Positions 82 to 63,608 of a stretch of 64,000 bases of DNA are shown here, piece after piece. The stretch is from IMG/VR virus record IMGVR_UViG_2903405734_000002, positions 64,001 to 128,000 of that record; one strand, given 5' to 3'. Both the position numbers and the translations under genes were made by a program. The notes beneath the pieces were generated by a model, which worked only from the letters and a program-made list of their open reading frames with translations, did not search any database and was not told the DNA's origin. The stretch comes from a virus. Taxonomy: Duplodnaviria; Heunggongvirae; Uroviricota; Caudoviricetes. How positions within the stretch are numbered: the stretch's first letter is position 1; each line of letters begins with the position of its first letter.

Positions 82-972
82 TTGAACAATTCCAGCTCCG
101 CTGAAAATAACCAGTTTCTTCTTTCTCTTCCTATTGGCAGAACCCTGCTAAAGCACATTTGCACAAAAGGATTGCCAGATTCAACTCTCAGCAATGATGA
201 ATGGGAGATGGCAAGAAATATTGAGCGTCATTGTCGGGGGCTAATGCCAAAAATTAGAGGTCAGTTAAATGGGCCTGCTATAAAAATAGAGAAGATACCA
301 TCTGGCGAAGCCGACTTTCTTATTCAGTTCCTCTCTAAGAGTGAAATGATGGCTGATGAGAAATTTAAGCGCGAGCTTGTAATGCTTAGGTTGATTTTCA
401 CAGAAAACCTCAATGCAGCAAAAGAAAAAGCCGCCTTAAGAGATGAGAAGATCAAAAAGAAAGCCAACTCCATAGCCACCGTTACGGCTGGTGGATGTAT
501 CGATCTATTCAAGAAGATTTCAGCTGAAATTCCTGCTGATTGGGCTCCATCCTTAAGACTGAACTGGCATGATAAAAACCCTGGAGTGTCATTCAACCAA
601 GGGGATCAATCAGGTAATTTGCTTGATGCGTGTGGCTACGAAATTTATGTTGATATGACTGAAATTCTCAATCACAACAAGCAGCTAATCAGCAAGATTT
701 ATATGGAAGATAGAGCTTTTGATGCCAACGAGGTTATTGGCGGCTTTCGCTCTGACAAGTGGGAGATGCACTTGGTTGCAGCAACATGTCATGCTGCGAG
801 TCACGCCGCGCAATGGTGCTCCATCGGTAAAAAATCACCAATCAAGGAAGATGAGCATGGCGGTAAGTTTTTGTTTTTCTATTCTCATGCAAGAAACTTC
901 TTGTGCAACCCATCACTAAAAGAGGCCAGGATCCGCATTGGATACGAACAGGAATCGCCTGGCCCAATCTGA
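82..972 (+). CDS. Hypothetical protein; possible inactive SprT/zincin-like domain; C-terminal tail ...QESPGPI
   Basis: TTG start 7 nt after GGAG. CHAASH...HGGKF resembles SprT HExxH...HG but lacks the catalytic Glu. Confidence 0.6.
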   Translation: MNNSSSAENNQFLLSLPIGRTLLKHICTKGLPDSTLSNDEWEMARNIERHCRGLMPKIRGQLNGPAIKIEKIPSGEADFLIQFLSKSEMMADEKFKRELVMLRLIFTENLNAAKEKAALRDEKIKKKANSIATVTAGGCIDLFKKISAEIPADWAPSLRLNWHDKNPGVSFNQGDQSGNLLDACGYEIYVDMTEILNHNKQLISKIYMEDRAFDANEVIGGFRSDKWEMHLVAATCHAASHAAQWCSIGKKSPIKEDEHGGKFLFFYSHARNFLCNPSLKEARIRIGYEQESPGPI

Positions 973-989
973 ATTTGCAATCGCAATTA

Positions 990-1502
990 TCAAGGGATGA
1001 TTTGCACCGTTGTTCCCACAGGAACAAGAGAAACGACTTCTTTGATTTCCTTGTTCGTAAGGGCAACACAGCCCTTAGTCCAATCTCTTCCTCTGAATGA
1101 ATCGGGATCTGGGAATTTATTTGGAAGTCCGTGGATAAAGATGTCACCACCCGTCTTCACATTCAACTTTTGAGCAATCATCTTGTCCAGTTCGTTTGGA
1201 TAAGAGATTTTTAAGCTGTAGTAAAAATTACTGTTGGGATTGAAGTATTCAATCTTGTACTTTCCTTCTGGAGTCCTGTGATCACCTTGATAAATTTTCC
1301 TGCCAACAGGTCTTTTGCCAAGAGAAACTCGATATGATTTGATCACCCTGCTATTTTTCAGCAGGAACATAACCCTGGATGACTTCTTGATTAGGACATA
1401 ATCAGCCTTAATGCCAGGATCTGTCTTGGTTGAAGGCGATGCAAGTGCAGTATTAAGAAACAATGCTGATAGTAGCAGAGCGGCGGCTTTGATTTTTATC
1501 AT
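990..1502 (-). CDS. L,D-transpeptidase (YkuD family), exported
   Basis: Start moved to ATG 1502, giving signal peptide MIKIKAAALLLSALFLNTALA. Motifs GDHRTPEGKY and IFIHG...WTKGCVAL (catalytic His/Cys). Confidence 0.9.
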   Translation of the reverse strand: MIKIKAAALLLSALFLNTALASPSTKTDPGIKADYVLIKKSSRVMFLLKNSRVIKSYRVSLGKRPVGRKIYQGDHRTPEGKYKIEYFNPNSNFYYSLKISYPNELDKMIAQKLNVKTGGDIFIHGLPNKFPDPDSFRGRDWTKGCVALTNKEIKEVVSLVPVGTTVQIIP

Positions 1503-1749
1503 AATTATTCTTTTTATTGTTGAAAACTTGCTATAATTTATCAAAAATAAACCAAAGGTCAACACAAACATTTCGTATAAAAAAACACCTTGCAAGACTT
1601 GCCTGCAAGGTGATAAAACTAACATAGTCCGAGGATAATTCTCTGAGGTCGTGTGAGTGAACCTCTGAGAGACCTCAAGATAGTTCAAGGATAATTTAAT
1701 TGCAAGAAATTATTTTAACATTAAATATAAAAAGAAAAAGGAGACGCAA

Positions 1750-2772: not shown

Positions 2773-2790
2773 TTATTTTAGCTAATAAAA

Positions 2791-3983: not shown

Positions 3984-4568
3984 ATGGCTGAGCTATCTTT
4001 TATTTATTCCTCAATGAATGCAGGAAAAACAACCGAACTACTTCAATTTGCTCATAATTATTCCGAGAGAGGAATGAACCCCTTCCTTATGACGCCATCT
4101 ATTGATAATAGGGCAGGGGTAGGGGTAATTGAGAGCAGGATTGGCATACAAAAAAAGGCGTTCTCATTCGATAAGGATGATAATCTATATGAAATTGTAT
4201 CAAGACTCAATGAAGCAAAAAAAATCGACTGTGTTCTGATTGATGAGGCTCAGTTTCTAACTGCCAAGCAGGTTTGGGAGATTAGCGACATTGTTGATTT
4301 CCTTGATATTCGCGTCCAGTGCTATGGCTTGAGAACCGATGCTTTCTCCATGACATTTGAGGGTAGTGAAAGGCTTCTTGCTCTATCAGATAAAATAATC
4401 GAAAGGGAAACCATTTGTCATTGTGGGGTAAATGCCATAATGGTGTTAAAGCTGAACGAGAAGGGAGAAGTTGTCTCAGCTGGCAAGCAAATTGACATTG
4501 GCGGAAATGATAAGTACATTTCTGTTTGTCGAAAGCACTACAAAAAAGCAATGAAAATGGACAGATAA
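3984..4568 (+). CDS. tdk: Thymidine kinase
   Basis: SSMNAGKTT P-loop, IDEAQF, YGLRTD, C-x-C...GGNDKY.SVCRKHY. Confidence 0.97.
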   Translation: MAELSFIYSSMNAGKTTELLQFAHNYSERGMNPFLMTPSIDNRAGVGVIESRIGIQKKAFSFDKDDNLYEIVSRLNEAKKIDCVLIDEAQFLTAKQVWEISDIVDFLDIRVQCYGLRTDAFSMTFEGSERLLALSDKIIERETICHCGVNAIMVLKLNEKGEVVSAGKQIDIGGNDKYISVCRKHYKKAMKMDR

Positions 4569-5540: not shown

Positions 5541-5542
5541 GC

Positions 5543-6430: not shown

Positions 6431-7276
6431 CTAGATGTCTAGTGACTCAGGAACTTTCTTACCTTTGTTTTTTGGCGTAGGTGGTGTTATTGTTGGCTTG
6501 TAGATTGTTGCATCTCTCCATTCCTTTTCCCCATAGAACTTCCAGTTAATATTTGTAATCATTGTCTTGCTTGTAATTCTTCCTGTGTTTGCTATCAAAA
6601 AACCATTGCCATTGATTTCCCATTTCTTTGCAATGGTTAATCCACCATCAGGATGTGAGATTCCAGATAAGTCCAAGATCCAATGGATTTTGCTTGCCTC
6701 ATCCCATCGATCAAAAACTTCATTGCAGTATTTTTGTGCCGCTGTTGGTGTCCAACCATTGATGGCCCTGAGTCTCTCCATGACCTCATCCAGACGATTG
6801 TTTGAGTATGCCAATCCAAGATGGAACATCTCATGGCACTCCTTGCATACACAAACAAGGCCCTCCAAGTGCTGAATTCCCCAGTTGAGGGGCTTGTCAT
6901 TGTCGTCAGATAGAAATTCATAATTCCAGATTTCATGAACATCTAGTGTATTTTTCTTGGTTCCGCAAGCCTGACAGGAATTTGAGTGCTTCTCAATAAT
7001 TGGGTGTCTCAACTTGTCCCAAGATGTCTTGGTAAGTAAATTTGCCAGGCTTGATCCCCATGATGAGCGAGGGATTAACTCCCCAATGACAGGAGCTGAG
7101 CCTAAAATAAATGGCAACCTTTTGTCGTCAACTGAAAAGGCATCGCCCCTGTTGTAAACAGCTCCATCCTTACCATAAAAAACATTACCAAAAGAAGAGG
7201 GGACATTTTCCCACTTGCCAAACTTTCTCTTTGGGAATAAATCACTTAGTTTTTTGCCCATATTCATTATTTTCAT
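6431..7276 (-). CDS. HNH endonuclease-family protein; tail ...KKVPESLDI
   Basis: W..LR.......CQACG....LDVHE.W...LVCVCKECHEMFH zinc/HNH pattern. Confidence 0.8.
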   Translation of the reverse strand: MKIMNMGKKLSDLFPKRKFGKWENVPSSFGNVFYGKDGAVYNRGDAFSVDDKRLPFILGSAPVIGELIPRSSWGSSLANLLTKTSWDKLRHPIIEKHSNSCQACGTKKNTLDVHEIWNYEFLSDDNDKPLNWGIQHLEGLVCVCKECHEMFHLGLAYSNNRLDEVMERLRAINGWTPTAAQKYCNEVFDRWDEASKIHWILDLSGISHPDGGLTIAKKWEINGNGFLIANTGRITSKTMITNINWKFYGEKEWRDATIYKPTITPPTPKNKGKKVPESLDI

Positions 7277-10598: not shown

Positions 10599-11207
10599 TC
10601 ATCGCTCAATAGATGCATCCTTTGCCTTTAGCTCTTTGCGCTCGTCTCTTTGGCCTTGTTTAATAAGCTCCTGGGAGTGCATATTCATCATTTCTTGAAT
10701 GTCGCCAATCGTCTTGTTAATAAACTGACTCCCGCCAGGTATGGCGTTAGCTTGTTTTATTTCGGTTGTTATCTCTTTTGCTCCCAGTGAAAAAAGCTCT
10801 CCAAGTTCTTTTTTTGTGATGTCGGGTTTTATTTTTTTGATTTCTTCCTCAAGAGAAGAAATTGCCTTGTCTGAAATGCCATATGCCTTGTCTAGAGATC
10901 CTTTGGAAATCACTGACATTGCTCCATTCCATACAAAAGACATTGCAGCTGCGGCCTTCATGCTAAAAGCATATGTAGCAAGCAGCTGGGCAGGCGAAGT
11001 TTGCCCATTAATCAGAGGCATAATTGCAATTGCGGTATTCATTGCGGCAAAAACAGATGCAAAAACAATGGTAGATTGGGCTGCATGTGTTGACATAACT
11101 CTATTTATGTATTTTCTTGCTCCGCTATTAAATTCCTTAACGTCATTTGCGACCGTTTCCTTTACCTGTCCGATAAGCCAGGACTTCTCAATTTTTGTTA
11201 GGCTCAT
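10599..11207 (-). CDS. Family A hydrophobic-hairpin protein (divergent member); tail ...KDASIER
   Basis: V.NDVKEF motif aligns with V..DFKPFS of the paralogues; two Ala-rich hydrophobic segments; similar length. Confidence 0.7.
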   Translation of the reverse strand: MSLTKIEKSWLIGQVKETVANDVKEFNSGARKYINRVMSTHAAQSTIVFASVFAAMNTAIAIMPLINGQTSPAQLLATYAFSMKAAAAMSFVWNGAMSVISKGSLDKAYGISDKAISSLEEEIKKIKPDITKKELGELFSLGAKEITTEIKQANAIPGGSQFINKTIGDIQEMMNMHSQELIKQGQRDERKELKAKDASIER

Positions 11208-11956: not shown

Positions 11957-12610
11957 TTAAATAGAGTAAGATGAGTTCTCTTTTGACTCTCTCTCTTTGA
12001 CCGCCTTTTCAAAACCTTTGTTGATATTTCTTTCAAAGGCGTTGTAAATATCTTTCTGCATCTCTGGAGTTCGACCAAGCGGCGTTTCTTCGAGTTTTTT
12101 CAGTAGACTCTTCTTGCTTTCCTCAAGAGCCTGCTTGAATTCATTAATACTCAGATCCTTGCTAATTCCACCAGCATTCTCAATAAACTTCTCGGTGATG
12201 GACTTACCTTTATTCATGTACCCAATCATTTCAATCTTTTCGGCTATTTTGCTAAAGGCACTAGCAACTGGCGGCAGGACTGCATGAGCAACGAGAAGTG
12301 CAGCAGCAACAGCGCCTCCACCAGCCATTCCCGTTGCCAGCACTGCGGCTCCACCAACAAGAGAAGCCTGCGCGGCCACCAATCCCAATGAAGTTGCAAA
12401 AAACATGGTTCCAAAAGCAGAGCCTTGAATGATATCTTTTCTGCTGACATCAAACTTTATGGCTGATGATATCTCTGAAAAATACCCACTAACCCTACCT
12501 GAAAAAGGCTTCACCTCATCGGAAACGACTTTCTCCAGTTCTTTTGACGCCTTAAAAATCTGCCAGGCCCTAGCATCACTAAAATCTGATATTTTCATTT
12601 TCACGCCCAT
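11957..12610 (-). CDS. Family A hydrophobic-hairpin protein; tail ...ENSSYSI
   Basis: VSDEVKPFSGRVS and LVAH.VLPP.A.A.SKIA motifs. Confidence 0.85.
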   Translation of the reverse strand: MGVKMKISDFSDARAWQIFKASKELEKVVSDEVKPFSGRVSGYFSEISSAIKFDVSRKDIIQGSAFGTMFFATSLGLVAAQASLVGGAAVLATGMAGGGAVAAALLVAHAVLPPVASAFSKIAEKIEMIGYMNKGKSITEKFIENAGGISKDLSINEFKQALEESKKSLLKKLEETPLGRTPEMQKDIYNAFERNINKGFEKAVKERESKENSSYSI

Positions 12611-12781: not shown

Positions 12782-13426
12782 TTATCTTGACAATGATGTA
12801 TTGTCATTTTTTCTGTTGATGCTGTTTAATGATGAGTGGTAGGCATTATGAACCTTTTCTTCAAGAACATCTCTGATTTTATCTCTGACACTTGGATTTT
12901 CCGAAAACTCTGATTTCCTTAGTGAGTCAAGTATCTGAGTTCGCCCTTCGCTTGCGATCTGCTTAAGGTGCTCATGATCCCTTCCATCTCCAAGTTTGCT
13001 CATGGCATCAGAGAATTTACTTACCAAAGAGTCATTTTCAGAAAAATATTTTTTTAGCTCAAAATGAGATGCAATCTTGCTAATGGCCTTTGCTATTGGA
13101 GGCAAAGCAAAATGTGCAACCATTAGGGCGGCAGAACCTGTTACCAGGCCCAATGTTTGGTCAAAGCTCATTGCCCCCATACCGCTTACGCCATGATTAA
13201 TCTCCTGGATGTTCTGGTAGACATTGAATGAGACGGTCGATGTTACTGTTGCTAAGGATGCCGCAAACAATGGATATTTATTCTGGATTGTATTGCCAAG
13301 ACTCTCAAAGAATGAGCTTACCTTTCCAGAAAACGGCTTGAAGTCATCAGCGACCAGCTTTTTGATTTCTGCGGAGCGACTGATGATATCTTGATGAATT
13401 GACTCGTTGCTATGTACATTAACCAT
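12782..13426 (-). CDS. Family A hydrophobic-hairpin protein; tail ...DNTSLSR
   Basis: VADDFKPFSGKVSSFF and LMVAHFALPPIAKAISKIA motifs. Confidence 0.9.
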   Translation of the reverse strand: MVNVHSNESIHQDIISRSAEIKKLVADDFKPFSGKVSSFFESLGNTIQNKYPLFAASLATVTSTVSFNVYQNIQEINHGVSGMGAMSFDQTLGLVTGSAALMVAHFALPPIAKAISKIASHFELKKYFSENDSLVSKFSDAMSKLGDGRDHEHLKQIASEGRTQILDSLRKSEFSENPSVRDKIRDVLEEKVHNAYHSSLNSINRKNDNTSLSR

Positions 13427-13449: not shown

Positions 13450-14109
13450 TTATCTAGACAGAGATGACTCATCTGGCTTTTTATAAATTTTATCGACTGA
13501 TGTTCGATAGGCTTCAAAAACCTTCTCTTCAAGAATATTATTGATTTTCTCTCTCACGCTTGGATCTTCTGCGAGCCTAGAGTTTTTAATTCCCTCTACA
13601 ATTCCATGCCTACCATGCTGTGCGATTAGGTGAAGATCTTCCTTGCTTCTTCCATCACCAATCTTTTCCATCAATCCTACAAATTTATTGGTGGCTGCTT
13701 CATTTTCTGCAAAATACTGCTTTAGCTCAAAATGAGTGGCAATCTTACTGATTGCTTTTGCGATAGGCGGCAAAGCAAAGTGAGCAACCATTAGAGCGCC
13801 TGCTGCACTAACGAGACCAACAGTTTGGTCATAATTGAATATGGAGTCCCCAAGGCCATTGTTCATGGTAATGTTGGGAATTTTGTTATACATCAAATTC
13901 TCTGCTGTTTGGGCTGTACCATAAAGCATGGAGGCGGTTGTAGGAATCAAAACGGCCAACCCTGATGCAAAAATTGCCATTTTGTTTTGTATTGTGTTTC
14001 CGAGCTTTTCAAAAAAAAGGCTTGTTTTTCCTGAGAATGGTTTAAATTCTTCAGTAACCAGTTTTTTGATTTCTTCCGCTCTATCAATTATATCTTGTTG
14101 TGATCTCAT
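13450..14109 (-). CDS. Family A hydrophobic-hairpin protein; tail ...DESSLSR
   Basis: Close tandem paralogue of 12782 (shared LMVAHFALPPIAKAISKIA and EDPSVREKI/ENPSVRDKI). Confidence 0.9.
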   Translation of the reverse strand: MRSQQDIIDRAEEIKKLVTEEFKPFSGKTSLFFEKLGNTIQNKMAIFASGLAVLIPTTASMLYGTAQTAENLMYNKIPNITMNNGLGDSIFNYDQTVGLVSAAGALMVAHFALPPIAKAISKIATHFELKQYFAENEAATNKFVGLMEKIGDGRSKEDLHLIAQHGRHGIVEGIKNSRLAEDPSVREKINNILEEKVFEAYRTSVDKIYKKPDESSLSR

Positions 14110-20931: not shown

Positions 20932-20958
20932 AAAAAGGCTGCCTCGGCAGCCTTTTTT
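20932..20958. terminator. Bidirectional intrinsic terminator
   Basis: AAAAAGGCTGCC-TC-GGCAGCCTTTTTT between convergent genes. Confidence 0.8.
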
Positions 20959-21676
20959 ACATTTCCATCTCAACTTCTCTTTCTTTTGAGATAACCCGTC
21001 CTTTGTTCTGATAGACCATTTCCTTGTTAGATTCATACCGGACTTGATCTTTATTGAAAGGTCTATACTCAGAGCAGGCACAGATTCTATTATCATAATG
21101 AGGAGAATCTTCAACCTTTTCATCCAAATGGGAAACTCCAATAGATGCTATCCCGTCATAGCCCAGTGATTTCAACAAAGTTATTACGCGAGCATCATCA
21201 CATAGCCAATAGGTTTCAATGTAGGCCATATCCTGCTCATCCTGATCCATATCATTAAACTCATCCAAATCAGTTTCGCAGCCATCATGATTCCAAACCC
21301 CTTTGCTCATTGTCTCCTCCAGAAAGGACTGCCACTGGATAGTCTCTAGCTTGGAGCCAAAAATTTCTCTAATATCAACATAATCGATATATCGGCTTTC
21401 GTTAATAATAAGCGGTTTTTTCATGGCAATTTCATAGATGCCGACAACACCATATGAATCACCTGTATCGTGCTCATAGTTGTTGGGGCTAACAGCATAA
21501 ACAGAGGCAGTATGAGGAGAACCAGTGAATGTCGGAACGGCTCTATTGAATGTAATAAATGGGTTCTCAAGGTGCTTTTCTATCTCACCTTCTTCTGCAT
21601 GAAAGCCTCTATACATTTTAATTGGTGTAGAGTCTTCATTTCTCATAAGATACTTTTCAAAATCTTCTTTTTTCAT
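20957..21676 (-). CDS. ADP-ribosyltransferase-like protein (ART-PolyVal-like); tail ...REVEMEM
   Basis: MYRG...FT..P..A.VYA...YEI.MKKP...GYDGI...EY..F..DQVR; start placed at ATG 21676. Confidence 0.65.
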   Translation of the reverse strand: MKKEDFEKYLMRNEDSTPIKMYRGFHAEEGEIEKHLENPFITFNRAVPTFTGSPHTASVYAVSPNNYEHDTGDSYGVVGIYEIAMKKPLIINESRYIDYVDIREIFGSKLETIQWQSFLEETMSKGVWNHDGCETDLDEFNDMDQDEQDMAYIETYWLCDDARVITLLKSLGYDGIASIGVSHLDEKVEDSPHYDNRICACSEYRPFNKDQVRYESNKEMVYQNKGRVISKEREVEMEM

Positions 21677-21689
21677 AGTTGTGACCTTT

Positions 21690-22007
21690 TTAAATATAAA
21701 GAGGCTCAAGATTGATCTTTACACTCTGGATCATTTTTGAAAATTCTTCGACAATCTGAACTTCATCATCAACATTATCCAGGGTAGCTCCCTTGCACTG
21801 GGATACTTTTGCCATAAGCACACCAATAACAGCCTGAACATCAGTAATCGACTCTTTTATGTCCCTTACATAGGTCAAGATAGATTTCATGTCTGGATCT
21901 TCTAAATCGATCTCTGGAATAAATTGCTTTTTCATTGTGTTATCCAAAGAAACAATATCCATTTGGACGCCAACAACAAAATCAACGACATCTTTCTTTA
22001 AAAACAT
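21690..22007 (-). CDS. Family B acidic ~105-aa helical protein
   Basis: MFLKKDVVDF...EDPD...VDDEV aligns with 11223 and 11602. Confidence 0.85.
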   Translation of the reverse strand: MFLKKDVVDFVVGVQMDIVSLDNTMKKQFIPEIDLEDPDMKSILTYVRDIKESITDVQAVIGVLMAKVSQCKGATLDNVDDEVQIVEEFSKMIQSVKINLEPLYI

Positions 22008-22019: not shown

Positions 22020-22667
22020 TTACCTTGAAAAGGATTGTTCAGTGGACTGGTGCTTTTTGATGAAGTTCTCCCTAGCTTCCAGAAGCTTACTAGCAGAGCG
22101 ATCCATCATGAGTCCCAGCCTTATTGCAGAGCCAGAATCAAGCTTCTTTGATTCATCAAAATCTATGGCTAATTTAAATTTCTCAATAATCGCATCCCTT
22201 GCTGCACCAAGAACAACACGTTGTTCAACAGGAGGAAGATCAGGATTAATTGATTTTATTGCATCAGCAAATCGAGCTGAAATACCACTATCTCTATCCA
22301 GATAGTGTTTTATTGTTTCTTTTTGGTAGTGACTAGCAACAGATGAGGCAACAACCGGAAGGATAAATCTTGCAGCAACTAAAGATACCGCAACAGCGGC
22401 CATGGATGCGACATCATTAAAAGATACAGATGGTGATGCACCATTCAGTATTTCGCTCCCGCCGTATGCAGCCATACTTCCTGATGATATTGTAGCCAAA
22501 ACAGCAGCGCCAATGAATGTAATATCACCATTTTCAGATCGAATTAACTCATCAGTTTTTTTGAAAAACGACATTACCTTTTCAGACATTGGCTTGAAGT
22601 CCTTTGACACAGCCTCTTCTATGTTCTTGATATTGCTTAATATTTCTTCTTTTAATAATTTGGTCAT
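22020..22667 (-). CDS. Family A hydrophobic-hairpin protein; tail ...TEQSFSR
   Basis: VSKDFKPMSEKVMSFF and LVAARFILPVVA motifs. Confidence 0.85.
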   Translation of the reverse strand: MTKLLKEEILSNIKNIEEAVSKDFKPMSEKVMSFFKKTDELIRSENGDITFIGAAVLATISSGSMAAYGGSEILNGASPSVSFNDVASMAAVAVSLVAARFILPVVASSVASHYQKETIKHYLDRDSGISARFADAIKSINPDLPPVEQRVVLGAARDAIIEKFKLAIDFDESKKLDSGSAIRLGLMMDRSASKLLEARENFIKKHQSTEQSFSR

Positions 22668-26654: not shown

Positions 26655-27860
26655 TCATAAATTCATCTCTATTTGATTGTTTTTATTTTCGCTCCTTTCT
26701 AGTTTTGCTTCTGCTTTTAGGAATGATGGGGCATCCAGCAAAGCCAACTCATTGTTTTTTATTTTTGATTTCACAATGTTGGATGTTGTAAACCAGCACC
26801 CTTGCCCAACAGACGCGCCTATCCTTGGAATTCCTATTTTTTTGTTTTTGTACCTTCGATCTATCTCTCCAAATATATTTCTAACCGCTTCATAATCTGT
26901 CATGAGTGCATTTTCATCGCCAGACTTTCCGAGCTGCGTGTATGCATTAATCACAATTATTTCTTTGTTGTTGTGTTCAATTACTGACTCACTAAATGTA
27001 CCAATCTTCTTTTTGTCCCCTAATCTCGTAAGCAGATCAGCATCCCTGGCTGACGGGAAAAGACTAAAGATTGAACTTGAAATGGCATCTGTATTATCAT
27101 GAAGAATATTGCAGTCATGAACTATGATATCAAGATTTCCTGCATTAATCATCTCTGAGAAACTGCTGTGATACACATTTTTAAATCCAGTGTACTCGGC
27201 AATCTTTTCATCTACATATTTTTCAAGATCGATCCCATTGATGGCCTTAAATCGTTCAAAGTAGTTTCTGCTCCAAGACATGGCCTTCTCGTAATCGTTC
27301 TTGTTTCCAAGATTCGTTACATTAACACCATATTCATTGGCAATCCTGATAGCCTGGCCTGTACCGCCTGTTTTTCCGCTTGTCTCGCTTGCAAATCTTG
27401 CTCCATCACCTGTATAGCACATGACGAATCTAACTGGACTCTCAAGGCTCTTTGTTAAGACTTGCATGGCATTTCTTGACATGAGTTTTCTTGCTGGCTC
27501 AGAGAGGTAATTCCACCCAGGGTGAAACCGAGAAGACAAGCTTTCTGCCATGGGATGAATATCGGTGTTATAACCACTGCCAGAGGCCCTGCCATTGAAT
27601 CCTTTCCATCCCAGGTGTACGTTCATGACCCTACCATAGTCACCAGCAGGCAATGTGCTATCAATGCTGCACATGAAATCATAGGCCATCCTTGCTCCGG
27701 TCTCGAAGGATGTGTCTGAGCCGTCAGCTGCTCCTGACTCCAGTACGCCACCAGACATAGCAAGAGCAAATCCCAGCTTGATCATGGAAACAGACAGCTT
27801 GCCAGTAACCTTCCTGGAACCGATGCCAGCAAAATGAAATAGATTGAAGTTAAAATGCAT
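26655..27860 (-). CDS. SLOG (DprA/YspA-like) + Macro domain fusion; tail ...NQIEMNL
   Basis: N-terminal AGIGSR...SGAADGSD...GGTG.AIRIA. C-terminal phage-type macro pattern IIVH.CN...IGT...VINAYTQ...DYEA...IG.PRIGA..G.G.W. Confidence 0.75.
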   Translation of the reverse strand: MHFNFNLFHFAGIGSRKVTGKLSVSMIKLGFALAMSGGVLESGAADGSDTSFETGARMAYDFMCSIDSTLPAGDYGRVMNVHLGWKGFNGRASGSGYNTDIHPMAESLSSRFHPGWNYLSEPARKLMSRNAMQVLTKSLESPVRFVMCYTGDGARFASETSGKTGGTGQAIRIANEYGVNVTNLGNKNDYEKAMSWSRNYFERFKAINGIDLEKYVDEKIAEYTGFKNVYHSSFSEMINAGNLDIIVHDCNILHDNTDAISSSIFSLFPSARDADLLTRLGDKKKIGTFSESVIEHNNKEIIVINAYTQLGKSGDENALMTDYEAVRNIFGEIDRRYKNKKIGIPRIGASVGQGCWFTTSNIVKSKIKNNELALLDAPSFLKAEAKLERSENKNNQIEMNL

Positions 27861-27963
27861 AAACAACCCCTTTATTTTATGTAATAATAACATGGAAGGG
27901 ATAAAAGATCATGATGTGCCAATAAAAACAGCAAAAATTATTATGAGACAGGTGTGTTATAAA

Positions 27964-36810: not shown

Positions 36811-37423
36811 AGAAAGAGAGAAGTTATCCTTGGTTCTAGATCTTGATGAAACTCTTTTTTACTCAACAGAAAAGCGGAGTGAACTATCAGATCAGCCTCA
36901 TGATTTTGAAATTTATGATGAATACACGAGATTTAGGGTCTTTAAGCGACAGGGCTTAGATGATTTTCTTGAGCGGATATTTAATAATGAAAAACTAAGT
37001 ATTGGTATATGGACTTCTGCAAACAAGTCATATGCTGATGGAATGGTGTCTTCTTTATTTTTCGATAAAAAACTGTCTTTTGTTTTTGACTCTAGCCGCC
37101 TGGTAAGGCAAAAAATGCCTATCATGAGCATGTATGGCCTTGAAGGTTATGAGCTAAAAAAGGATCTTCAAAAGGTAATAAGGCATACGGGAGCAAGTAT
37201 AGAAAGGATTGTTGCTATTGATGACAAGCCATCATTTTACACAAGAAATTATGGTAATTTAATCACAGTTCCTGGCTTTTACGGTGATAAAAGCAAGCCA
37301 GACAACACTCTTGAATTGCTTGCTGACTATATTGAGCGACTAGAAAGAGTAGATAATGTAAGAAAGGTGGAAAAAAGAGGGTGGATAAACAATCAAAAAA
37401 AGGATGTTGCTCCAACAATATGA
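36803..37423 (+). CDS. HAD phosphatase, FCP1/NIF-like; tail ...KDVAPTI
   Basis: LVLDLDETL, R.GL..FL, IWTSA...YA, KDL.K, IDDKP; overlaps the ATPase stop. Confidence 0.85.
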   Translation: MDKEREKLSLVLDLDETLFYSTEKRSELSDQPHDFEIYDEYTRFRVFKRQGLDDFLERIFNNEKLSIGIWTSANKSYADGMVSSLFFDKKLSFVFDSSRLVRQKMPIMSMYGLEGYELKKDLQKVIRHTGASIERIVAIDDKPSFYTRNYGNLITVPGFYGDKSKPDNTLELLADYIERLERVDNVRKVEKRGWINNQKKDVAPTI

Positions 37424-42395: not shown

Positions 42396-43955
42396 ATGGC
42401 AAAAAAACCCTATAGCAAAAGCAAAGCGAAAAAGAGCTATCTAACACCTGATCTTGTTAACAAAGTCAGCGAGGTTTTTAATGCTCTTATTTTTAAAGCA
42501 GCAAAATTTGATCCAGAAGAAGTTAAGCTTCTGACTCTTAATGCTTGGAATGAAGCAGTTGAAAAGATGAAGGCCGATGTATCACCATCTGTCATTAAAG
42601 ATGCTGAGGAATCTGTGTCCGTCATGTTCGATGCTGAGCCAGAGCAGTGGGTCGAAAGTGTTAACAAGACCCTGGATAAATACAGAAGACAGAGTGATGT
42701 AAGCCTTTCAAGAGCAAAGATTGACATGCTTAGAATGTGGCATGACATGGCTTATGGAGATCAGCGCTCTTTTGATATTCCATGGCTTAGACATATGACT
42801 GTGGGTGAAAAATTCATGCCTTTCTTTGAAAAGGATGAGCGTTATGTGTTTAAGGGATTTACAAACCAATCCATTCTAGCTTATGCGATTGAAGAAAGGG
42901 ATGGTGCTCATGATAATGTTGTTCTTTTTAAGGGCGAGCTTGAAAAGCTGCTAGCTCATGATTTTGAAAAAAACCCAGATGATCCAAAGAGCACTGACGA
43001 ACAGAGAAAATCTCATGTCTTTGGTAAGTTAAAAGGAATTCCTTCTCTGACCAGTCTGTTTGTTCCTAGTGGTTACACCACATGGGTAACAGAGTCGGGC
43101 CAAAAATGGGTTGGTGAGAACGGAGAGAAAAAACCCTCTGTTGAAACAATCATGAAAGAGAACTTGAAGGCTCATGAAAATAAGACATTCGTTTCTCATC
43201 CGGTTTGGACGATCTCATCTATTGAGCACCTAATCTCAAAAGATGCTGTCGAGGCTCTTGGTAAGCTTAGAGAAGTCAGAGCCAAAAAATCAGAATTCGT
43301 TCTTAAGCCAGAAGACACAGATCTGAATGATGTGATCGACAACCTCATTAATAAGCAGATTGAACAACAAAAAATCACTACTTATGAAGGTGGTAACGAA
43401 GCATTTTATAGACCTGCCCATGACACAATTCGCATTCCTACCAGGGAGCAGTTTGTTAACCCAGTAGCCAGGTATGCAACGTGGTCTCATGAGCTGGCAC
43501 ACTCAACAAAGCATATGCTGGGCCGTCCCGCTCTAAACAAATTTGGCTCTGTTCCTTATGGAATAGAAGAGGTTGTCGCAGAGTCGGTTGCAAACCTTAT
43601 GGTTAAAGACCTCCATGAAAAGATGACCGAGATCAGAGGTGGAAAACTTCCTGATGAATGGCAGGGTTTCTTTGATAACTACAGCAAAAATGCAACCAGT
43701 TATGGAGCTGGCTGGGGCGGGAAGTTTGACTTCAAGCAGCACTTTGAAAGAATCTATAACACCGATCAAGATAACAAGAGCAAGCAAATCCTATCAAAAA
43801 TGATGGGTGATGTGCTTAATGCGATGATGCTCATTAAGAATGGTGCAATCAATGATCTGGAAGTAACAACTGAATTCAGGAATGAAAAGCTCAAAGAAAA
43901 TATTGAAAAATCCAGAAGCAGGAGTGCAGAAAGAGACTCTGAGCCAGGAATTTAA
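42396..43955 (+). CDS. ardC: ArdC-like antirestriction protein (ssDNA-binding N-domain + zincin-like MPTase); tail ...RDSEPGI
   Basis: PW...F.G..N..L; A.YRP..D.I..P...QF; HELAHST.H...R...FG...Y..EE.VAE. Confidence 0.7.
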   Translation: MAKKPYSKSKAKKSYLTPDLVNKVSEVFNALIFKAAKFDPEEVKLLTLNAWNEAVEKMKADVSPSVIKDAEESVSVMFDAEPEQWVESVNKTLDKYRRQSDVSLSRAKIDMLRMWHDMAYGDQRSFDIPWLRHMTVGEKFMPFFEKDERYVFKGFTNQSILAYAIEERDGAHDNVVLFKGELEKLLAHDFEKNPDDPKSTDEQRKSHVFGKLKGIPSLTSLFVPSGYTTWVTESGQKWVGENGEKKPSVETIMKENLKAHENKTFVSHPVWTISSIEHLISKDAVEALGKLREVRAKKSEFVLKPEDTDLNDVIDNLINKQIEQQKITTYEGGNEAFYRPAHDTIRIPTREQFVNPVARYATWSHELAHSTKHMLGRPALNKFGSVPYGIEEVVAESVANLMVKDLHEKMTEIRGGKLPDEWQGFFDNYSKNATSYGAGWGGKFDFKQHFERIYNTDQDNKSKQILSKMMGDVLNAMMLIKNGAINDLEVTTEFRNEKLKENIEKSRSRSAERDSEPGI

Positions 43956-54319: not shown

Positions 54320-56167
54320 TTAAATTTCCATCTCAGGTTCTTTTTTTGAGTGCTTCTTAATAAACATTTTTTCAGCAGACTCTCTGTTTTGTTCAGTAGT
54401 GAATGGTGATTTGAGCACAATCTCTTGGCTTTTCTCTGCCTCCAATTCCTTCTGAAAATCATCTAGATTTTCAAATAGGACTTCCAACAACCTCTCTTTG
54501 AGAGACTCCCTATCCTCACCGGAAAAACCATAATAAGGTACATCAAGATCACTAAAGCTCTCATTGTCTCTAATCTCTTCTTTAACGCAATCAATAATAT
54601 CCTCGTCAGAATAATTTTTTCCGTATTCTTCATTTATTGCATGATATCTTTTCAGCAAATCTTGTGGAGATAGCTCGAACTTCCATTTGTCATTGATGTG
54701 CTCATATGATAGACCATTGCACTCAAGCGTTGTATTTACAGCATCCATTGTTGCCTTAACAGCATCATACAGCTCAGAGTATGCTCCAGACTCTGCCGAA
54801 CTCTCTGATGCGCGTAATAACGCCTCTTGAATGGTTGAGTCAGATTCATAATCTTCAATAAAAATTCCAGCCTTTAAAATCCCGCTGCCTGAACTTATAT
54901 CAATGCCTTCATCTTCAAGAATTTCAGCATAGTTTCTTTCAAGGTATGCCTGGACAATACCGATAATTTCGTGATTTTCGCTTATAAGATTGTCAAGCAC
55001 TGTTTCACATTCATACTCATCAATGGCGACATCGCCGACATCAAAATAACCTTCTTTTATTGTTTCAACATAGCGACCAAGCTCTTTTAGCTTGAATGTA
55101 TCTGCAAAGTCTTCCAGGTCATCGCCAGAAAAAATCTCAATGGCATTCCTTTCTTTATCTTCTTCGCTAAGTCCAATTGCTTCTGATAATCCATTGATTA
55201 CTCGTTCATTAACTTCCTTGCCATTGAATAACCAATGGTCATAGAACGAAACAAGAGATGGCTTAACTTCTGAAATTTCTTTAATCTCTTCTGTGCTTAG
55301 GTCGGATAGCATAAAGTTGTTTTGAGGCTTATACCCTCCGCCATCCATTTTATTAACGAGATCTGTCTTTAAGAACTCAACGATTGAAGGCCAGTATTTT
55401 TCATCTGGCTTTTCATTTCCGTACCCCTTGATCTCTCCTGTATGGCCTTTTGAGACATCGTTCATAATAAGTGTTACATGGGGTATCCAGTGGTTGTCTC
55501 TAAGAGGATCTCTACTCCTTAGCGAGTACACATTTTGTCCTGGGCGACCATAGCCGTTACCGCAATGATGCATTGCGTCTCCCTCTCTTTTGCAACCTGG
55601 CGTTTGCAGATCGAACCAGGTATATCCGTCCTTTGTTTCCATGACGACTTCACCATACTCCTCAAGGGAGCGGTTTGCTGTCTTGTCCATCCATTCTTGT
55701 TCGAGATCACTCAGCTCATCAAGTATCTGAGACGGAGATTGGGAATCAAAGGCATGATTTTTGACAGAATGAATCCTAAGATCCATAAAGTGCTCAAGCC
55801 TAAGAGATAGGTCTTCCATCGCCCTTTCAGTCATGAGGTTTTCTAAAATGTCACTTGCAGAAGCATCATGCTCATTTTCGAATTTTTTGATCCACTTACT
55901 GTCTGAAACTGGCATCAGAGTTGTTTGTCTCTTTCCATTTTCAAAGTCAGGGAAAATAGCCTCATTGGCACCATCACTGGAAACATTCATCGCGGATTTC
56001 AACATCCTGTATTTGAAAATCCTAAGAAACCATGTGATTTTGTCATCCTTTTTTAATGTTTTTCTTGCCCAGTTGATATTTTCTTGTATGTTATCCTTGA
56101 TGTTTTTTGGCGCTTCTTTGAATAGCGTTGAGGCAAACATCTGCTGGTATCTTGATTTTGATGACAT
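54320..56167 (-). CDS. PcfJ-like domain protein with acidic C-half; tail ...KEPEMEI
   Basis: EG..M.HC...Y....VYSLR....PHVT.......EIKGYGN.KP. Confidence 0.7.
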   Translation of the reverse strand: MSSKSRYQQMFASTLFKEAPKNIKDNIQENINWARKTLKKDDKITWFLRIFKYRMLKSAMNVSSDGANEAIFPDFENGKRQTTLMPVSDSKWIKKFENEHDASASDILENLMTERAMEDLSLRLEHFMDLRIHSVKNHAFDSQSPSQILDELSDLEQEWMDKTANRSLEEYGEVVMETKDGYTWFDLQTPGCKREGDAMHHCGNGYGRPGQNVYSLRSRDPLRDNHWIPHVTLIMNDVSKGHTGEIKGYGNEKPDEKYWPSIVEFLKTDLVNKMDGGGYKPQNNFMLSDLSTEEIKEISEVKPSLVSFYDHWLFNGKEVNERVINGLSEAIGLSEEDKERNAIEIFSGDDLEDFADTFKLKELGRYVETIKEGYFDVGDVAIDEYECETVLDNLISENHEIIGIVQAYLERNYAEILEDEGIDISSGSGILKAGIFIEDYESDSTIQEALLRASESSAESGAYSELYDAVKATMDAVNTTLECNGLSYEHINDKWKFELSPQDLLKRYHAINEEYGKNYSDEDIIDCVKEEIRDNESFSDLDVPYYGFSGEDRESLKERLLEVLFENLDDFQKELEAEKSQEIVLKSPFTTEQNRESAEKMFIKKHSKKEPEMEI

Positions 56168-58727: not shown

Positions 58728-59249
58728 ATGACGCCAAGGAAGCCAGAAAAAATCAGCATCATGCTAAATGCTGTTGAAAAAATTGGTATCAACAATCTTC
58801 TATCTGATGAAAACCTCAAGTTTGATTTTCGTCTAGGAAAGAATTCGCTTGGTCATCCTATTTGCATCGCCAAGTCAGAAATCAACCTGGATAAGTTGCC
58901 AGTTGAGGTTTTTGCATTCATGGTTGGAGCAATGAAAAACCATAGGGTGGCTCTAATCAATTTGAAGAGCGATGGAAGTCCGACAAACAACATTAAAATA
59001 CAGCACAACCTGTCTGAGAATTTCTCAAGAGACCCAGAGCTTCAAAGTCAGGTCAAAAACTATACAGTTAGCACAATCAAAAAAGCCCTTGATGCTGAGC
59101 TAAATGAGCTAAAAGCAGCAAAGAATGGCAAGGCTATTGGTAACCCATTTAAGTCCATTAAGCCCGATAAACCAGGATTTTTTGAGAGGATAATGTCAGG
59201 ATTAAAAAAGGAACGGGATCTTTCGAGCAGAGCAATTGACATGGCATAA
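58728..59249 (+). CDS. Hypothetical protein; tail ...KKERDLSSRAIDMA
   Basis: AAGG RBS; (AAN)6 leader. Confidence 0.75.
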   Translation: MTPRKPEKISIMLNAVEKIGINNLLSDENLKFDFRLGKNSLGHPICIAKSEINLDKLPVEVFAFMVGAMKNHRVALINLKSDGSPTNNIKIQHNLSENFSRDPELQSQVKNYTVSTIKKALDAELNELKAAKNGKAIGNPFKSIKPDKPGFFERIMSGLKKERDLSSRAIDMA

Positions 59250-61196: not shown

Positions 61197-61368
61197 TAAG
61201 TTAACCTCTCTAGTCTCCCTTCATGGAGACACCGCAGACATTCAAGTATTATAAGAGCAATTAAATAAATGTCAATAAACCGACTTGTTTTATTCTTAAA
61301 ATTTATGTCTGTCTAAAATATTAGAGGGGGCCTTGGCCCCCTTTCAACAATTGAAAAAACGATTATTT

Positions 61369-62529
61369 TCAGCTTACAGCAAAATCTTTTGTTGATGGCT
61401 TTCTCACCTGAGAGCCATTTGATGTCGCAGAAAGGTGCTCAATTGATTCCCTTATGTTGCTCATGAGCTCAACATCATCAATTAACTTTTTGGTTAGAAA
61501 CAATGAGTTCCGATCATCCTGGTTGTGAATCTCATTGCCGTCCATTGTTGCATAGCTAAGTGATGGAAGATCATCCCATTGCATTGAGTACAGATAATTT
61601 GTCAACTTAGCATAAACATCAAAGAACAAGGATTCATCGGGCTCCATCCTTGTGCCTCTTTCCACAACAATGGTTTTTTTATCGTAAAAATCAAGCTGGC
61701 TGACAGAAAGATTCTCCGTGAAATCAAAGCTATCACCATCAGAAAAGTTAACTGACATTGATGAGTGCTTCACAGGAACAAACAACTTGGAAAGAGCAGT
61801 ATCTTTTCCGTCAGTGACGGTGATGATAGCCCTGTCATTTGTTTCTTCAAAATCAATACTTAGGTTGTGCCTAAGTGCAATTGCCTGCATTTCTATCTGC
61901 TCAAATGTAGACCTAATTCGGGCGGCCTCATCTTTGGCAGAATCAACGATAATTAGTGGCTTGGCTCCAAATTCATCATGATATCCATTATATTTGTTGA
62001 TTATATATGTTGCAGTATCGTACATCTTGCTTTGATCTGTTTTGCCCAGGCTCATAAACTCAGCCAATGTCTCTGGCAGATCATAAACACGACCGATGTT
62101 TTTGTTAACAAGACCTCTTACCGAAAAGTTTTGTTCCAGCGTCCTTTCTTTTTCGGATGCGATTTTCTCTTTCAGGTTGCTAAAGTAGTCCTTCCTTTTT
62201 CCTGTTTCATCAAGAAATTTCTTATCAGTAAGGTCTCCAACAGGTATTTCTCTGATTATTTCTTTTGAGCCAATAACAAGTGAAGAAGGGTAAAAATCAG
62301 CGTGAAAATCTTCATTGTTCACATTGTTAAACAAAAACCCATCAACACCATCTTTTTTAACACTAAAAGCATTAACATAGAATGTTTTTTTAACATCGAT
62401 TGATGAAGTGCAAACCGTTGTATTGATTCCGACATTGCAGAGCTCGACACAACCGTTTTTGTTGGCGCTCTCTGAAAGAATTTTTCTTGAAACTTCCCTG
62501 CTTAGGTTCATTTCTGGGGCGTTCTTCAT
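61369..62529 (-). CDS. Hypothetical protein
   Basis: 386-aa ORF with GAGG RBS; no recognised motif. Confidence 0.75.
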   Translation of the reverse strand: MKNAPEMNLSREVSRKILSESANKNGCVELCNVGINTTVCTSSIDVKKTFYVNAFSVKKDGVDGFLFNNVNNEDFHADFYPSSLVIGSKEIIREIPVGDLTDKKFLDETGKRKDYFSNLKEKIASEKERTLEQNFSVRGLVNKNIGRVYDLPETLAEFMSLGKTDQSKMYDTATYIINKYNGYHDEFGAKPLIIVDSAKDEAARIRSTFEQIEMQAIALRHNLSIDFEETNDRAIITVTDGKDTALSKLFVPVKHSSMSVNFSDGDSFDFTENLSVSQLDFYDKKTIVVERGTRMEPDESLFFDVYAKLTNYLYSMQWDDLPSLSYATMDGNEIHNQDDRNSLFLTKKLIDDVELMSNIRESIEHLSATSNGSQVRKPSTKDFAVS

Positions 62530-62750
62530 TGTTTTGGCCTCTTATAATTATTATTGCAATAATTATATCACTGTTTTGCCGAAGATATACAGTGCCAATT
62601 AGATATTTTTGATATTATTCTGTGTGATTTATTAAAAACTGTAACTTGATTACATTAATCTCTTGATGTTACTTGCATCTGTAATTATTATATATAGAGA
62701 TGGTCTTCAATACATGCTATTGCGTGACCCAGTGTATTTTTGGGAGGCAT

Positions 62751-63608
62751 ATGAATAATAAAGTTTTGATAGCAAGAAATGGAAGCTTTAGGAATGGTAT
62801 TAAGATAGCTGACATATGCAACAAGAGTGAGTCACACAACCCTAGCTGGTTGATTAGAATAAAAAAAGGCGATTATGTAGAAAGCTATGGTGTTTATGCA
62901 GAAAATCACGAATCAGCCATAGCAGCATTTTGTCGGTATGAAATAAGTCAACGTAAGTGTGGTAAAGGCGGTCTTGTAAAAACGATAGTTGAGGTAGATC
63001 CATCGGTGATAAGCCCAAGGATGGAGTCAAATGCATTCATAGGAATAGATGGAAAGATTTTTTGCGTTAATGGAATTGAAGCGGAAAGAGCTAGATTTGT
63101 CATGGTTTCTGCAAGATATGAATCAATGCTTACCACTGGCAGCTTAGATTCAAGGTTAAATAATGTAAAAATAAGAATCGCAGAAATACTCCTAAATAAA
63201 AACCAAGAAAAACTTGAGAAAGCCTATGAGGTTTATGAGGCTCTTGGTGGTGACGTTATAGGAAAAAATAGAATTAAAATAGAGCTATCATCATCAAGGG
63301 GAAAGTTTGATACCGAAATTTTTGTAACAGACCTTATGCATGAGCTGGGTCAAAGGGGTATTCACTCAAGCTCATTTCATCTAGATGGTTGCGGTGATTT
63401 TATCTATATAGATACAAATGAGTTTGAAAAAGAGCGCATCATGAAGGCTGTAGATAAGATTGTTCTTCTAGACCCCACAGGCGTTGTTGTTTCGCATTCA
63501 ATGATGACTGGTGAGAATAAGTACATAAAGGAGATCGGAAAGAATAGCGAGCATGCCATGAAGTTTGCAGGTTCTCCATCTCCAGGAAGTCTTGCAATGA
63601 GCGCCTAA
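62751..63608 (+). CDS. Hypothetical protein; tail ...SPSPGSLAMSA
   Basis: GGAGG RBS before ATG 62751. Confidence 0.75.
   Translation: MNNKVLIARNGSFRNGIKIADICNKSESHNPSWLIRIKKGDYVESYGVYAENHESAIAAFCRYEISQRKCGKGGLVKTIVEVDPSVISPRMESNAFIGIDGKIFCVNGIEAERARFVMVSARYESMLTTGSLDSRLNNVKIRIAEILLNKNQEKLEKAYEVYEALGGDVIGKNRIKIELSSSRGKFDTEIFVTDLMHELGQRGIHSSSFHLDGCGDFIYIDTNEFEKERIMKAVDKIVLLDPTGVVVSHSMMTGENKYIKEIGKNSEHAMKFAGSPSPGSLAMSA

Follow-up and report, generated by a model that had tools for sequence, protein, structure and literature searches.

Why should more than a dozen proteins with unrelated bodies finish in nearly the same few residues? This question is raised by a 64,000-nucleotide stretch of DNA (the window, meaning the whole of the stretch that was analysed), which covers bases 64001-128000 of IMGVR_UViG_2903405734_000002, a single 215,275-bp contig (the record). 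The first-pass annotation of the window had proposed that 14 proteins, and more loosely three others, carry a common C-terminal tail behind a Lys/Arg-rich, disordered-looking stretch, and that the tail addresses them to a conjugation machine. Here, positions marked "window" count from the window start and positions marked "record" count over the whole contig. In the window, open reading frames (ORFs) were counted from a length of at least 80 amino acids (aa), which gave 69; the count for the whole record is 209. A stop codon directly follows each of the 17 pentapeptides that had been listed, in the gene named for it, so all 17 are true C-termini; the coordinate by which each had been listed is the stop end for minus-strand genes and the gene start for plus-strand genes.

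The tails were described by a window motif, [SETDGAQNV][LIMFPVY][SETDGN][RLIMYV]-stop, and by a three-residue core motif, [LIMFP][SE][RLIMYV]-stop, with expectations derived from the frequency of each pattern at internal protein positions. The 14 strong endings all match the window motif and are exactly the matching ORFs in the window, i.e., 14 of 69 against 1.6 expected (p = 5e-10); the three loose endings (SPGPI, AIDMA, and LAMSA) lie outside it. On the whole record the window motif is borne by 29 of 209 ORFs (approximately 5 expected), or about one protein in seven, and the core motif by 24 of 209 (2.9 expected). The pattern originally put forward is permissive: it fits approximately 10% of internal positions and picks up 42 proteins on the whole record against 20.3 expected. 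Our regular expressions were drafted after inspection of the data, and we therefore put weight on tests that are independent of them. In a scan of exact C-terminal tripeptides with paralogues collapsed, LSR came out on top, with 5 occurrences against 0.085 expected (Bonferroni 2.6e-4). The same scan also catches artefacts of repeat DNA, namely PTM in the tRNA arrays of a related Vibrio plasmid (W01, described below) and IKI/PSW in the chromosome sample, so paralogue and repeat filtering is needed.

The tail might have no function and arise from base composition, from paralogy, from some DNA motif where genes end, or from artefacts of ORF calling. The permissiveness of the original pattern could be taken this way, as could the fact that four bearers are paralogous and that, when the three final residues were scanned with a five-class reduced alphabet, nothing significant remained after correction on the record alone; on W01 the same scan was significant. 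We nevertheless consider a functionless tail extremely improbable. The tails are enriched 7-8 fold on the record, whereas chromosome controls of high and low GC content are flat: the same regular expressions are not enriched in 800 kb of the Aeromonas caviae chromosome (observed/expected 0.75-1.06) or in 400 kb of the Proteus mirabilis chromosome at 39% GC (observed/expected 0.67-1.24). The bodies are indeed unrelated, as had been claimed, with bearers of the core motif spanning 22 blastp families, of which only one, a family of membrane-hairpin proteins, gives several; paralogy is thus no explanation for the enrichment. Nor is a DNA motif, because synonymous codons vary: five codons are used for Leu at position -3, six for Ser at -2, and three for Arg at -1, and all three stop codons occur. 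Furthermore, the enrichment is repeated on replicons of 37% and 56% GC, and the motif class is kept across orthologues of 33-98% identity, as detailed below. Selection acts on the tail at the protein level, and the tail is real and modular.

What selection keeps can be read from the orthologues. A 458-aa Cys-rich protein of no known family (window 33565..34941, plus strand), which ends in ...EEDLSPSL after a Lys-rich linker, has homologues that preserve the body, a Lys-rich linker that varies in length, and the same class of tail while the letters change. The SPSL end found here becomes SLTM at 96% identity, SLSM at 86%, GLDR at 51%, and ELSM at 48%, and among remoter members GPGI at 38%, DLSM at 36%, APSI at 34%, and, at 33% in each case, GLGM in Vibrio and ELGR in Ferrimonas. 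A fold search with this protein returned uncharacterised relatives only, and its C-terminal domain is OB-like. A single-sequence search with it over genome and viral contigs gave no loci; a profile search with an alignment as query gave two, in Ferrimonas marina and Granulosicoccus. The Granulosicoccus homologue is more distant and is without the tail, and its genome gave no DotH match, although this is a single case. A comparable range of ends is found in homologues of a 519-aa zincin metallopeptidase (window 42396..43955, plus strand; MPTase-PolyVal, an ArdC-type C-terminal domain, Pfam E = 1e-16). It ends in ...DSEPGI, and EPGI, ELGI, EASI, GLGM, GLEK, EPQL, SLEI, EPSI, and TFTL occur in the family. 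Pro and Leu are interchangeable at position -3, because they are swapped between 98%-identical copies of this peptidase.

A third bearer shows the tail to be modular. This 206-aa NIF/FCP1-like phosphatase (window 36803..37423, plus strand; Pfam NIF E = 4e-28) ends in ...DVAPTI, and its domain terminates in ...EKRGW in all 150 cluster representatives. A tail extension beyond that point was found in 4 of the 10 nearest representatives, one of them ending in ...SESSLSR, and in 3 of the remaining 140, which equals the background rate. Because the extension past EKRGW is confined to the nearest relatives, the tail is an add-on to the NIF domain. The gene neighbourhoods of the tail-less NIF homologues were too ambiguous for us to say that phage copies are without the tail.

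For position statistics, 31 bearers defined by regular expression were compared with 178 non-bearers. Position -3 is hydrophobic or Pro, as the first-pass annotation had expected of a Dot/Icm-type signal (Leu/Met/Ile/Phe 81%, Pro 19%). Position -2 is Ser, Glu, Asp, Thr, or Gly, and the last residue is Arg in 35% of bearers and otherwise Leu, Ile, or Met. Upstream, the consensus has Asp/Glu/Ser at -4 (D/E/S/T in 22 of 31 bearers versus 50 of 178 others), Ser/Thr/Asn at -5, Asp/Glu at -6 (15 of 31 versus 29 of 178), and scattered Lys/Arg at approximately -9 to -13, with K/R enriched 2-3 fold at -9, -11, and -13; an excess of D/E is limited to -4 and -6. Residues -25 to -4 are more hydrophilic in bearers (-1.14 versus -0.43, p = 8e-7). 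An AlphaFold2 model of the 458-aa bearer is folded up to about residue 428, and over residues 439-458 its predicted local distance difference test (pLDDT) score stays <50. The description of the preceding stretch as Lys/Arg-rich and disordered is therefore borne out by the K/R excess and by the hydrophilic, low-pLDDT tails. The same cannot be said of the likeness to the basic signals of VirB/D4 substrates: the final 12-30 residues are close to neutral in net charge and no more positive than in non-bearers, and there are no VirB4/VirD4 Pfam matches, with none on the record for the VirB/VirD4 families PF03135 and PF02534. Exported proteins do lack the tail, a signal-peptide-like N-terminus being present in 0 of 31 bearers versus 30 of 178 others (p = 0.01). 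The tail is also absent from machine and housekeeping proteins, namely DnaE, DnaB, topoisomerases, the large subunit of ribonucleotide reductase (RNR), SecA, ClpP, DotL, DotM, and PilV.

What kind of replicon carries such tails? IMG/VR files the record as a virus with a CheckV completeness of 90%, and with its 20 tRNA genes, dnaE, RNR, and topoisomerase it has features of huge phages. Since the cargo-loading peptides of encapsulins are C-terminal, one could suppose that the tail loads proteins into a capsid for ejection with the DNA. We give this idea almost no credence. No structural PHROG was found among the 30 largest proteins of the record, which has replication and nucleotide-metabolism genes instead, and Pfam searches of the record for terminase (Terminase_6N) and HK97 capsid (Phage_capsid) gave no match. 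The record encodes DotM, DotL, a prepilin peptidase, four PilV-like adhesins, and a ParM-like partition protein. The dnaE gene of the record shows 50-56% identity to those of Vibrio and Pseudomonas plasmids that are 0.9-1.0 Mb in size, and 75 of 218 record proteins have homologues, in syntenic blocks, on W01, the Vibrio parahaemolyticus plasmid CP099927.1 (938 kb, 37% GC). The backbone held in common with giant plasmids that carry a type IVB secretion system (T4BSS) comprises dnaQ-dnaB-dnaE, RecD, RecJ, topoisomerases, a SecA paralogue, dotM-dotL, PilV, and many tRNAs; the gene-by-gene comparison covered the Vibrio branch only. The left end of the record (record 1-71) interrupts a tRNA-Ala gene, and the right end (record 214,8xx-215,275) enters an array of approximately 96-bp repeats, the same array as at window 46.4-47.8 kb, which marks the record as a fragment of an assembly. 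Annotated sources of close homologues are Aeromonas media and Aeromonas sp.; a megablast search with 25 kb against plasmid and phage collections gave no match. As a contig, the record represents one fragment of a giant plasmid from Aeromonas that is related to the ~0.9-Mb Vibrio plasmids. Our own early reading of it as a jumbo phage with a virion-loading signal was dropped given the lack of structural genes and the synteny with plasmids, and the case shows that fragments of giant plasmids are being entered as "jumbo phages" in virus databases.

A conjugative plasmid could supply a secretion machine, and part of one is encoded on the record. The window itself has no type IV secretion system (T4SS) genes, as the annotation had said, but 34 kb past its right edge lies a dotM-dotL pair. 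DotM (440 aa; record 165122-166444, minus strand) matches Pfam DotM_C PF23127 at E = 6.7e-39 and, by structure, Legionella IcmP/DotM (PDB 6exa and 6sz9) at E ~2e-21. Directly downstream is a DotL-like coupling ATPase of 830 aa with TraG-D_C and TrwB_AAD_bind domains (record 162539-165031, minus strand). This gene order equals that of icmP-icmO, and no other channel gene is near. These TraG-D_C and DotM_C matches overturned an early reading in which, from negative VirD4, VirB4, T2SSE, DotH, and DotI searches, the record had appeared to have no T4SS. Three other proteins of the record deserve mention as potential readers of a C-terminal peptide: a full-length SecA paralogue with a preprotein-binding domain (156721-159504, minus strand), ClpP (151243-151839, plus strand; Pfam E = 6.5e-88 and 61% identical to the ClpP of W01), and a PDZ-containing RseP-like protease (199563-201008, minus strand). 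The SecA paralogue and the RseP-like protease are also encoded on W01.

Two related replicons carry both the tail and a far more complete Dot/Icm-like system. W01 has genes for DotB, DotC, DotD, IcmJ/DotN, DotG, DotH, and DotI, together with those for a DotO-like ATPase of 986 aa and a type IVb pilus, at 209-235 kb; its dotM-dotL pair is a long way from this main cluster. Under the strict pattern, 66 of its 1073 ORFs have the tail against 20.6 expected (p = 6e-16), an enrichment of about 3 fold, and L-[S/T/G]-M ends twelve unrelated proteins. The second replicon is a 576-kb contig of Ferrimonas marina (56% GC) which carries the homologue of the 458-aa family. It encodes DotN (NCBIfam equivalog, above cut-off), a DotO-like protein, DotD, DotC, DotB, DotG, DotH, DotI, a pilus, and dotM-dotL, and its strict-pattern tails number 26 against 11.4 expected (p = 1e-4), about 2.3 fold. 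The tail is thus common to a family of giant plasmids with Dot/Icm-like systems, in which each branch has its own dialect: LSR, LSL, and PxI on the record, L[ST]M in Vibrio, and mostly L-[E/D/S/G]-R in Ferrimonas. Of the record's candidate readers, the other two replicons both share only dotM-dotL, the prepilin peptidase, and PilV; the Ferrimonas contig has no counterpart of the ClpP, the SecA paralogue, or the RseP-like protease.

A separate observation concerns the deposited linear record of W01. Its ends (1-6600 and 903000-938616) repeat each other, dotM-dotL is present twice, and the ORF at 22428-23369 is identical to that at 925763-926704, so the length of 938 kb probably includes an assembly overlap.

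The most economical reading of these results takes the tail as a type IVB translocation tag, used for delivery through a Dot/Icm-like machine of the plasmid; we put the probability of this reading at roughly 0.45, i.e., a little below even. The tail would then be a short, portable address peptide, functioning at the protein level, on cytoplasmic enzymes and small membrane-hairpin proteins. We infer that it would be read by the type IVB coupling complex DotL-DotM, probably with DotN, and that the tagged proteins would reach the recipient by way of the Dot/Icm-like channel, together with the DNA or ahead of it. Once delivered, they might blunt the defences of the recipient and aid the establishment of the plasmid. 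The suggestion of a "plasmid effectome" in the first-pass annotation is strengthened in this form by the enrichment over chromosomes, the DotM-DotL pair on the record, the tail on relatives with full Dot/Icm-like systems, and ends resembling those of Legionella effectors; what it loses is the basic signal, and an E-block is also lacking. By extension, and at somewhat longer odds than the translocation tag itself, giant Dot/Icm-type plasmids may deliver an "establishment effectome" in which each protein has a portable C-terminal tag and the dialects evolve with the DotL-DotM receptor. With a similarly tentative standing, this effectome would comprise dozens of separate enzymes here and probably >100 on the whole plasmid, with LSR, LSM, and LER as lineage dialects.

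Several observations weigh against a translocation tag. Our regular expressions have caught one ending with a known role other than secretion: the RNR small subunit (record 206175-207320, minus strand) ends in ...DFEL, as does its Vibrio orthologue, which is the known large-subunit-binding tail and hence a false positive. No DotB-type ATPase, DotH, DotI, or VirB4-type protein was matched on the 215-kb fragment, and DotC, DotD, DotG, and DotO are likewise absent from it. Because dot genes are scattered in the plasmid family of W01, the missing channel genes plausibly lie on the unassembled part of the plasmid, judging from the relatives. The relaxase families PF03432 and PF07514 had no match on the record, W01, or the Ferrimonas genome, other families not having been tried. 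The co-occurrence of tail and T4BSS comes from three related replicons only, which have many other genes in common. Finally, the recognition chemistry of Legionella is not reproduced. The Glu-rich E-block found at approximately -10 to -17 in a subset of Legionella effectors is absent from the plasmid tails, which have an excess of K/R at -9 to -13 instead, and Legionella DotM bound only acidic, Glu-rich peptides (PMC5802825). Of the Arg residues of DotM that are important in Legionella, only R314 and R315 fall in the aligned stretch; R314 is kept and R315 is replaced by Cys. Since the tails are neutral and without an E-block, and R315 is Cys, the direct reader may be DotL, DotN, or an adaptor rather than DotM.

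These last points also bear on a different reader altogether. The tail could be a docking tag for something outside the T4BSS, such as a hub, a chaperone, a membrane or pole anchor, or an export factor like the SecA paralogue, so that the bearers would be gathered locally only. A short motif at a free C-terminus is the kind of ligand that many peptide-binding domains read, both the record and W01 encode a full SecA paralogue and an RseP-like PDZ protease, and the tails lack the E-block that Legionella DotM reads. Docking is an unlikely explanation in our view, though one to be taken seriously. The tail is enriched on the Ferrimonas contig even though that contig lacks the SecA, RseP, and ClpP paralogues, and no alternative conserved reader was found among the candidates on the record. 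For SecA in particular, the bearers have no signal peptides and, to our knowledge, SecA does not read C-terminal signals. For RseP, most bearers are soluble enzymes, whereas PDZ domains of this type act on the periplasmic ends of membrane proteins.

Alternatively, the tail could be a C-terminal degron for an AAA+ protease (ClpXP or ClpAP with the plasmid ClpP, or Lon) that keeps the action of the bearers short-lived. The record and W01 encode ClpP, the bearers are cytoplasmic, and C-terminal degrons such as those of ssrA and MuA are short and exposed, with a hydrophobic end that basic residues may precede. However, the ClpX tags described so far finish with Ala-Ala or a comparable pair rather than with hydrophobic-Ser-Arg; the bearers end in R, L, I, or M after S, E, or D, and the terminal Arg found in 35% of them would be unusual. 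There is no plasmid ClpP on the Ferrimonas contig, and we know of no precedent for one protein in seven, with nucleases, phosphatases, and anti-restriction-type enzymes among them, being marked for destruction. W01 moreover has a second C-terminal class with an ssrA-like look, Ala-Ala ends on 30 of 1073 ORFs against 3.4 expected, on unrelated proteins, which would be a more natural ClpXP tag. We therefore regard a degron as quite unlikely. Because the evidence from co-occurrence comes from three related replicons, both docking and degradation keep some share of the probability.

If the tail is a translocation tag, the identity of the bearers would name the cargo. In addition to the phosphatase, the metallopeptidase, and the 458-aa protein, the window encodes a 281-aa HNH-nuclease-like protein ending in ...PESLDI (window 6431..7276, minus strand; Atlas 0.95 to HNH clusters, with no Pfam match at E <= 0.01). 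Further named bearer bodies on the record are a PBECR5 nuclease, an RlaP nucleotidyltransferase, and an RNase H. The nameable bearer bodies are conflict-type enzymes, namely NIF phosphatase, MPTase-PolyVal, PBECR5, RlaP, RNase H, and HNH; the PcfJ, ART-PolyVal/AcrIF11-like, and Macro assignments are weaker leads. They concern a 615-aa PcfJ-like protein ending in ...EPEMEI (window 54320..56167, minus strand; Atlas 0.90 to PcfJ clusters, a lead only), a 561-aa possible ADP-ribosyltransferase (ART) ending in ...SFNIER (27844..29529, plus strand; Atlas 0.84 to ART-PolyVal/AcrIF11-like clusters), whose Vibrio orthologue ends in ...TELTM, and a 412-aa protein ending in ...QIEMNL (26655..27893, minus strand) with a weak Macro match (Pfam ThsA_Macro E = 0.0086, below the curated cut-off). 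The last has the same tail in the close relative L060, and its Vibrio orthologue ends in ...QQLGFF.

The hairpin proteins form a second group of bearers. Four minus-strand paralogues, grouped by blastp and hydropathy, comprise 217 aa ending in ...NSSYSI with Tyr at -3 (window 11957..12610; blastp family 1, two segments with Kyte-Doolittle values of 1.7-1.9), 214 aa ending in ...NTSLSR (12782..13426), 219 aa ending in ...ESSLSR (13450..14109), and 215 aa ending in ...EQSFSR (22020..22667). The final Leu-Ser-Arg is coded TTG TCA AGA in the second and CTG TCT AGA in the third, so even between these paralogues the codons differ. The remaining bearers in the window, all on the minus strand, are a 202-aa protein ending in ...DASIER with one to two moderately hydrophobic segments (10599..11207) and a 250-aa acidic protein ending in ...EVEMEM (20957..21709), neither with a Pfam match, and a 147-aa protein ending in ...DSSPEI (35419..35862), the tail of which is identical in L060. 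The loose cases outside the motif are all on the plus strand: 296 aa ending in ...ESPGPI, with Gly at -3 and Pro at -2 (82..972), 173 aa ending in ...RAIDMA (58728..59249), and 302 aa ending in ...SLAMSA, a hydrophobic-Ser-Ala end (62700..63608). A 194-aa thymidine-kinase-like protein (Tdk; window 3984..4568, plus strand) ends in ...KMDR and fits the three-residue regular expression only; its tail is probably due to chance, because a 53%-identical Vibrio orthologue ends in ...EEMRK without the tail. Outside the window, a DnaQ-like exonuclease (record 196810-197574, plus strand) ends in ...LWPSM and its Vibrio counterpart in ...VLGL.

The character of the cargo bears on the question of the target. 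A type IVB signal could be aimed at a eukaryotic cell (amoeba or animal) rather than at a bacterial recipient: the machine is of the Dot/Icm kind, the bearers include a NIF/FCP1-type phosphatase from a mainly eukaryotic family, and effector secretion by megaplasmid Dot/Icm-like systems has been described as an open question (PMC3136466). Against this, the cargo suits bacterial defences and nucleic acids (MPTase-PolyVal/ArdC-type, PBECR5, RlaP, RNase H, and HNH), the system is paired with a PilV-type conjugative thin pilus, and the bearers showed no bodies that mimic host proteins, such as ankyrin or F-box. A eukaryotic target thus seems very unlikely.

Other C-terminal and neighbouring features were observed alongside the tail. 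Three acidic paralogues of 105-106 aa without the tail (window 11223-11543, 11602-11922, and 21690-22007, all minus strand) adjoin the tail-bearing hairpin proteins, whose hairpins consist of two moderately hydrophobic segments, an arrangement that may recall the chaperone-effector pairs of membrane effectors. Three unrelated proteins, all on the minus strand (record 58739-59206; window 24304-24753 and 37478-38038), end in ...GNK (0.03 expected, Bonferroni 0.04), which may be chance. Further, ends that resemble the C-terminal hub peptide of SSB (DDDIPF) occur on a 666-aa protein (...LIPF; record 14788-16788, minus strand), on a RecJ-like exonuclease (...AVPF; 204017-205999, minus strand), and on a RecD-like helicase (...QVPF; 210457-212721, plus strand), and IPF ends are also in excess on W01 (4 against 0.17 expected).

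Should the effectome reading be true, it would supply the cargo that has been missing for the T4BSS of megaplasmids, and Legionella's arsenal of effectors would have a counterpart directed at bacteria. A tag recognisable in sequence would name 25-30 candidate cargo proteins on this fragment, among them anti-restriction-type peptidases, nucleases, a phosphatase, Macro- and ART-like enzymes, and membrane-hairpin proteins. If the tag works, conjugation could carry a protein arsenal with a Legionella-sized share of the genes, aimed at bacteria, which would explain how giant plasmids survive their entry into defended hosts and would give a minimal portable type IVB signal. If the tail is a degron or a docking tag instead, it would still be an undescribed plasmid-wide sorting code.

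The closest known parallel is with the Dot/Icm effectors of Legionella and Coxiella. Their signals (RalF, CegC3, and the consensus of Lifshitz et al.) are likewise extreme C-terminal, unstructured, and polar, with a hydrophobic residue at -3 that small or polar residues precede, and are read in part by DotM of the DotL-DotM-DotN coupling complex. Pro is reportedly also allowed at the -3/-4 position, according to Nagai et al. in 2005. For Legionella, two features of the signal are established, namely the E-block and hydrophobicity at -3 (PMC3052360). C-terminal effector peptides are bound by DotM in Legionella, and effectors there end in ...SRFTM (CegC3), ...ARLSK (LegC8), and ...RGFPI (Lem8), with a computed optimum of ...SSLKL in which changing the last Leu to Glu abolishes transport (PMC5802825). 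All four ends fit the plasmid motif, the final residue is hydrophobic in both systems, and the tagged share is similar, at about 10-15% of genes. By comparison, the plasmid tails are about neutral, tighter, and closer to the very end, and terminal Arg is common among them. They are borne by a giant conjugative plasmid, with other bacteria as the likely target. Clamp-binding motif (QL[SD]LF) and PDZ-ligand readings of the tail were set aside in view of the terminal Arg, the lack of a final Phe, and the diversity of the enzymes.

Among conjugation systems, F-type machines carry plasmid proteins into recipients, without a common short motif (PMC8406263, PMC11288057). The "conjutome" of the F-plasmid pED208 (ParA, ParB, SSB, PsiB, and others) likewise consists of helper proteins delivered to the recipient by the conjugation machine, where they ease establishment. 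F substrates, however, have heterogeneous C-terminal or internal signals, number tens of proteins, and use a type IVA system, whereas the plasmid here is far larger and has one compact tag on a far larger share of its proteins. IncI1 plasmids (R64 and ColIb-P9), of approximately 100 kb, conjugate by a Dot/Icm-related I-type system that includes a PilV thin pilus and also transfers the Sog primase, and we know of no common short C-terminal motif described for IncI substrates. The plasmid studied here resembles them in its type IVB-type conjugation and PilV-like adhesins and differs from them in that the MOBP relaxase search of the record was negative. Polyvalent proteins, which are predicted to accompany invading DNA into the cell and to act first (PMC5512222), have the same domains (Iyer et al. 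2017), i.e., MPTase-PolyVal and PBECR5, with leads to ART-PolyVal and PcfJ. They combine many domains in one giant polypeptide, whereas the plasmid has a separate gene for each domain, with its own tail, which would be another way of solving the same problem of delivery.

Another replicon of this character is pMPPla107 of Pseudomonas syringae pv. lachrymans, a ~1-Mb plasmid with dnaE and other housekeeping paralogues, many tRNAs, a majority of hypothetical genes, and a Dot/Icm-like T4SS; whether the Dot/Icm-like systems of megaplasmids secrete proteins was stated as unknown in 2011 (PMC3136466). We found no description of such a C-terminal tag on megaplasmids in the literature. The branch to which the record belongs (Aeromonas, Vibrio, and Ferrimonas) differs from the Pseudomonas branch of pMPPla107, and what is new here is this branch with its three dialects, the chromosome-controlled enrichment of the tail, the orthologue-level evidence of selection, and the DotM-DotL pair on the record itself.

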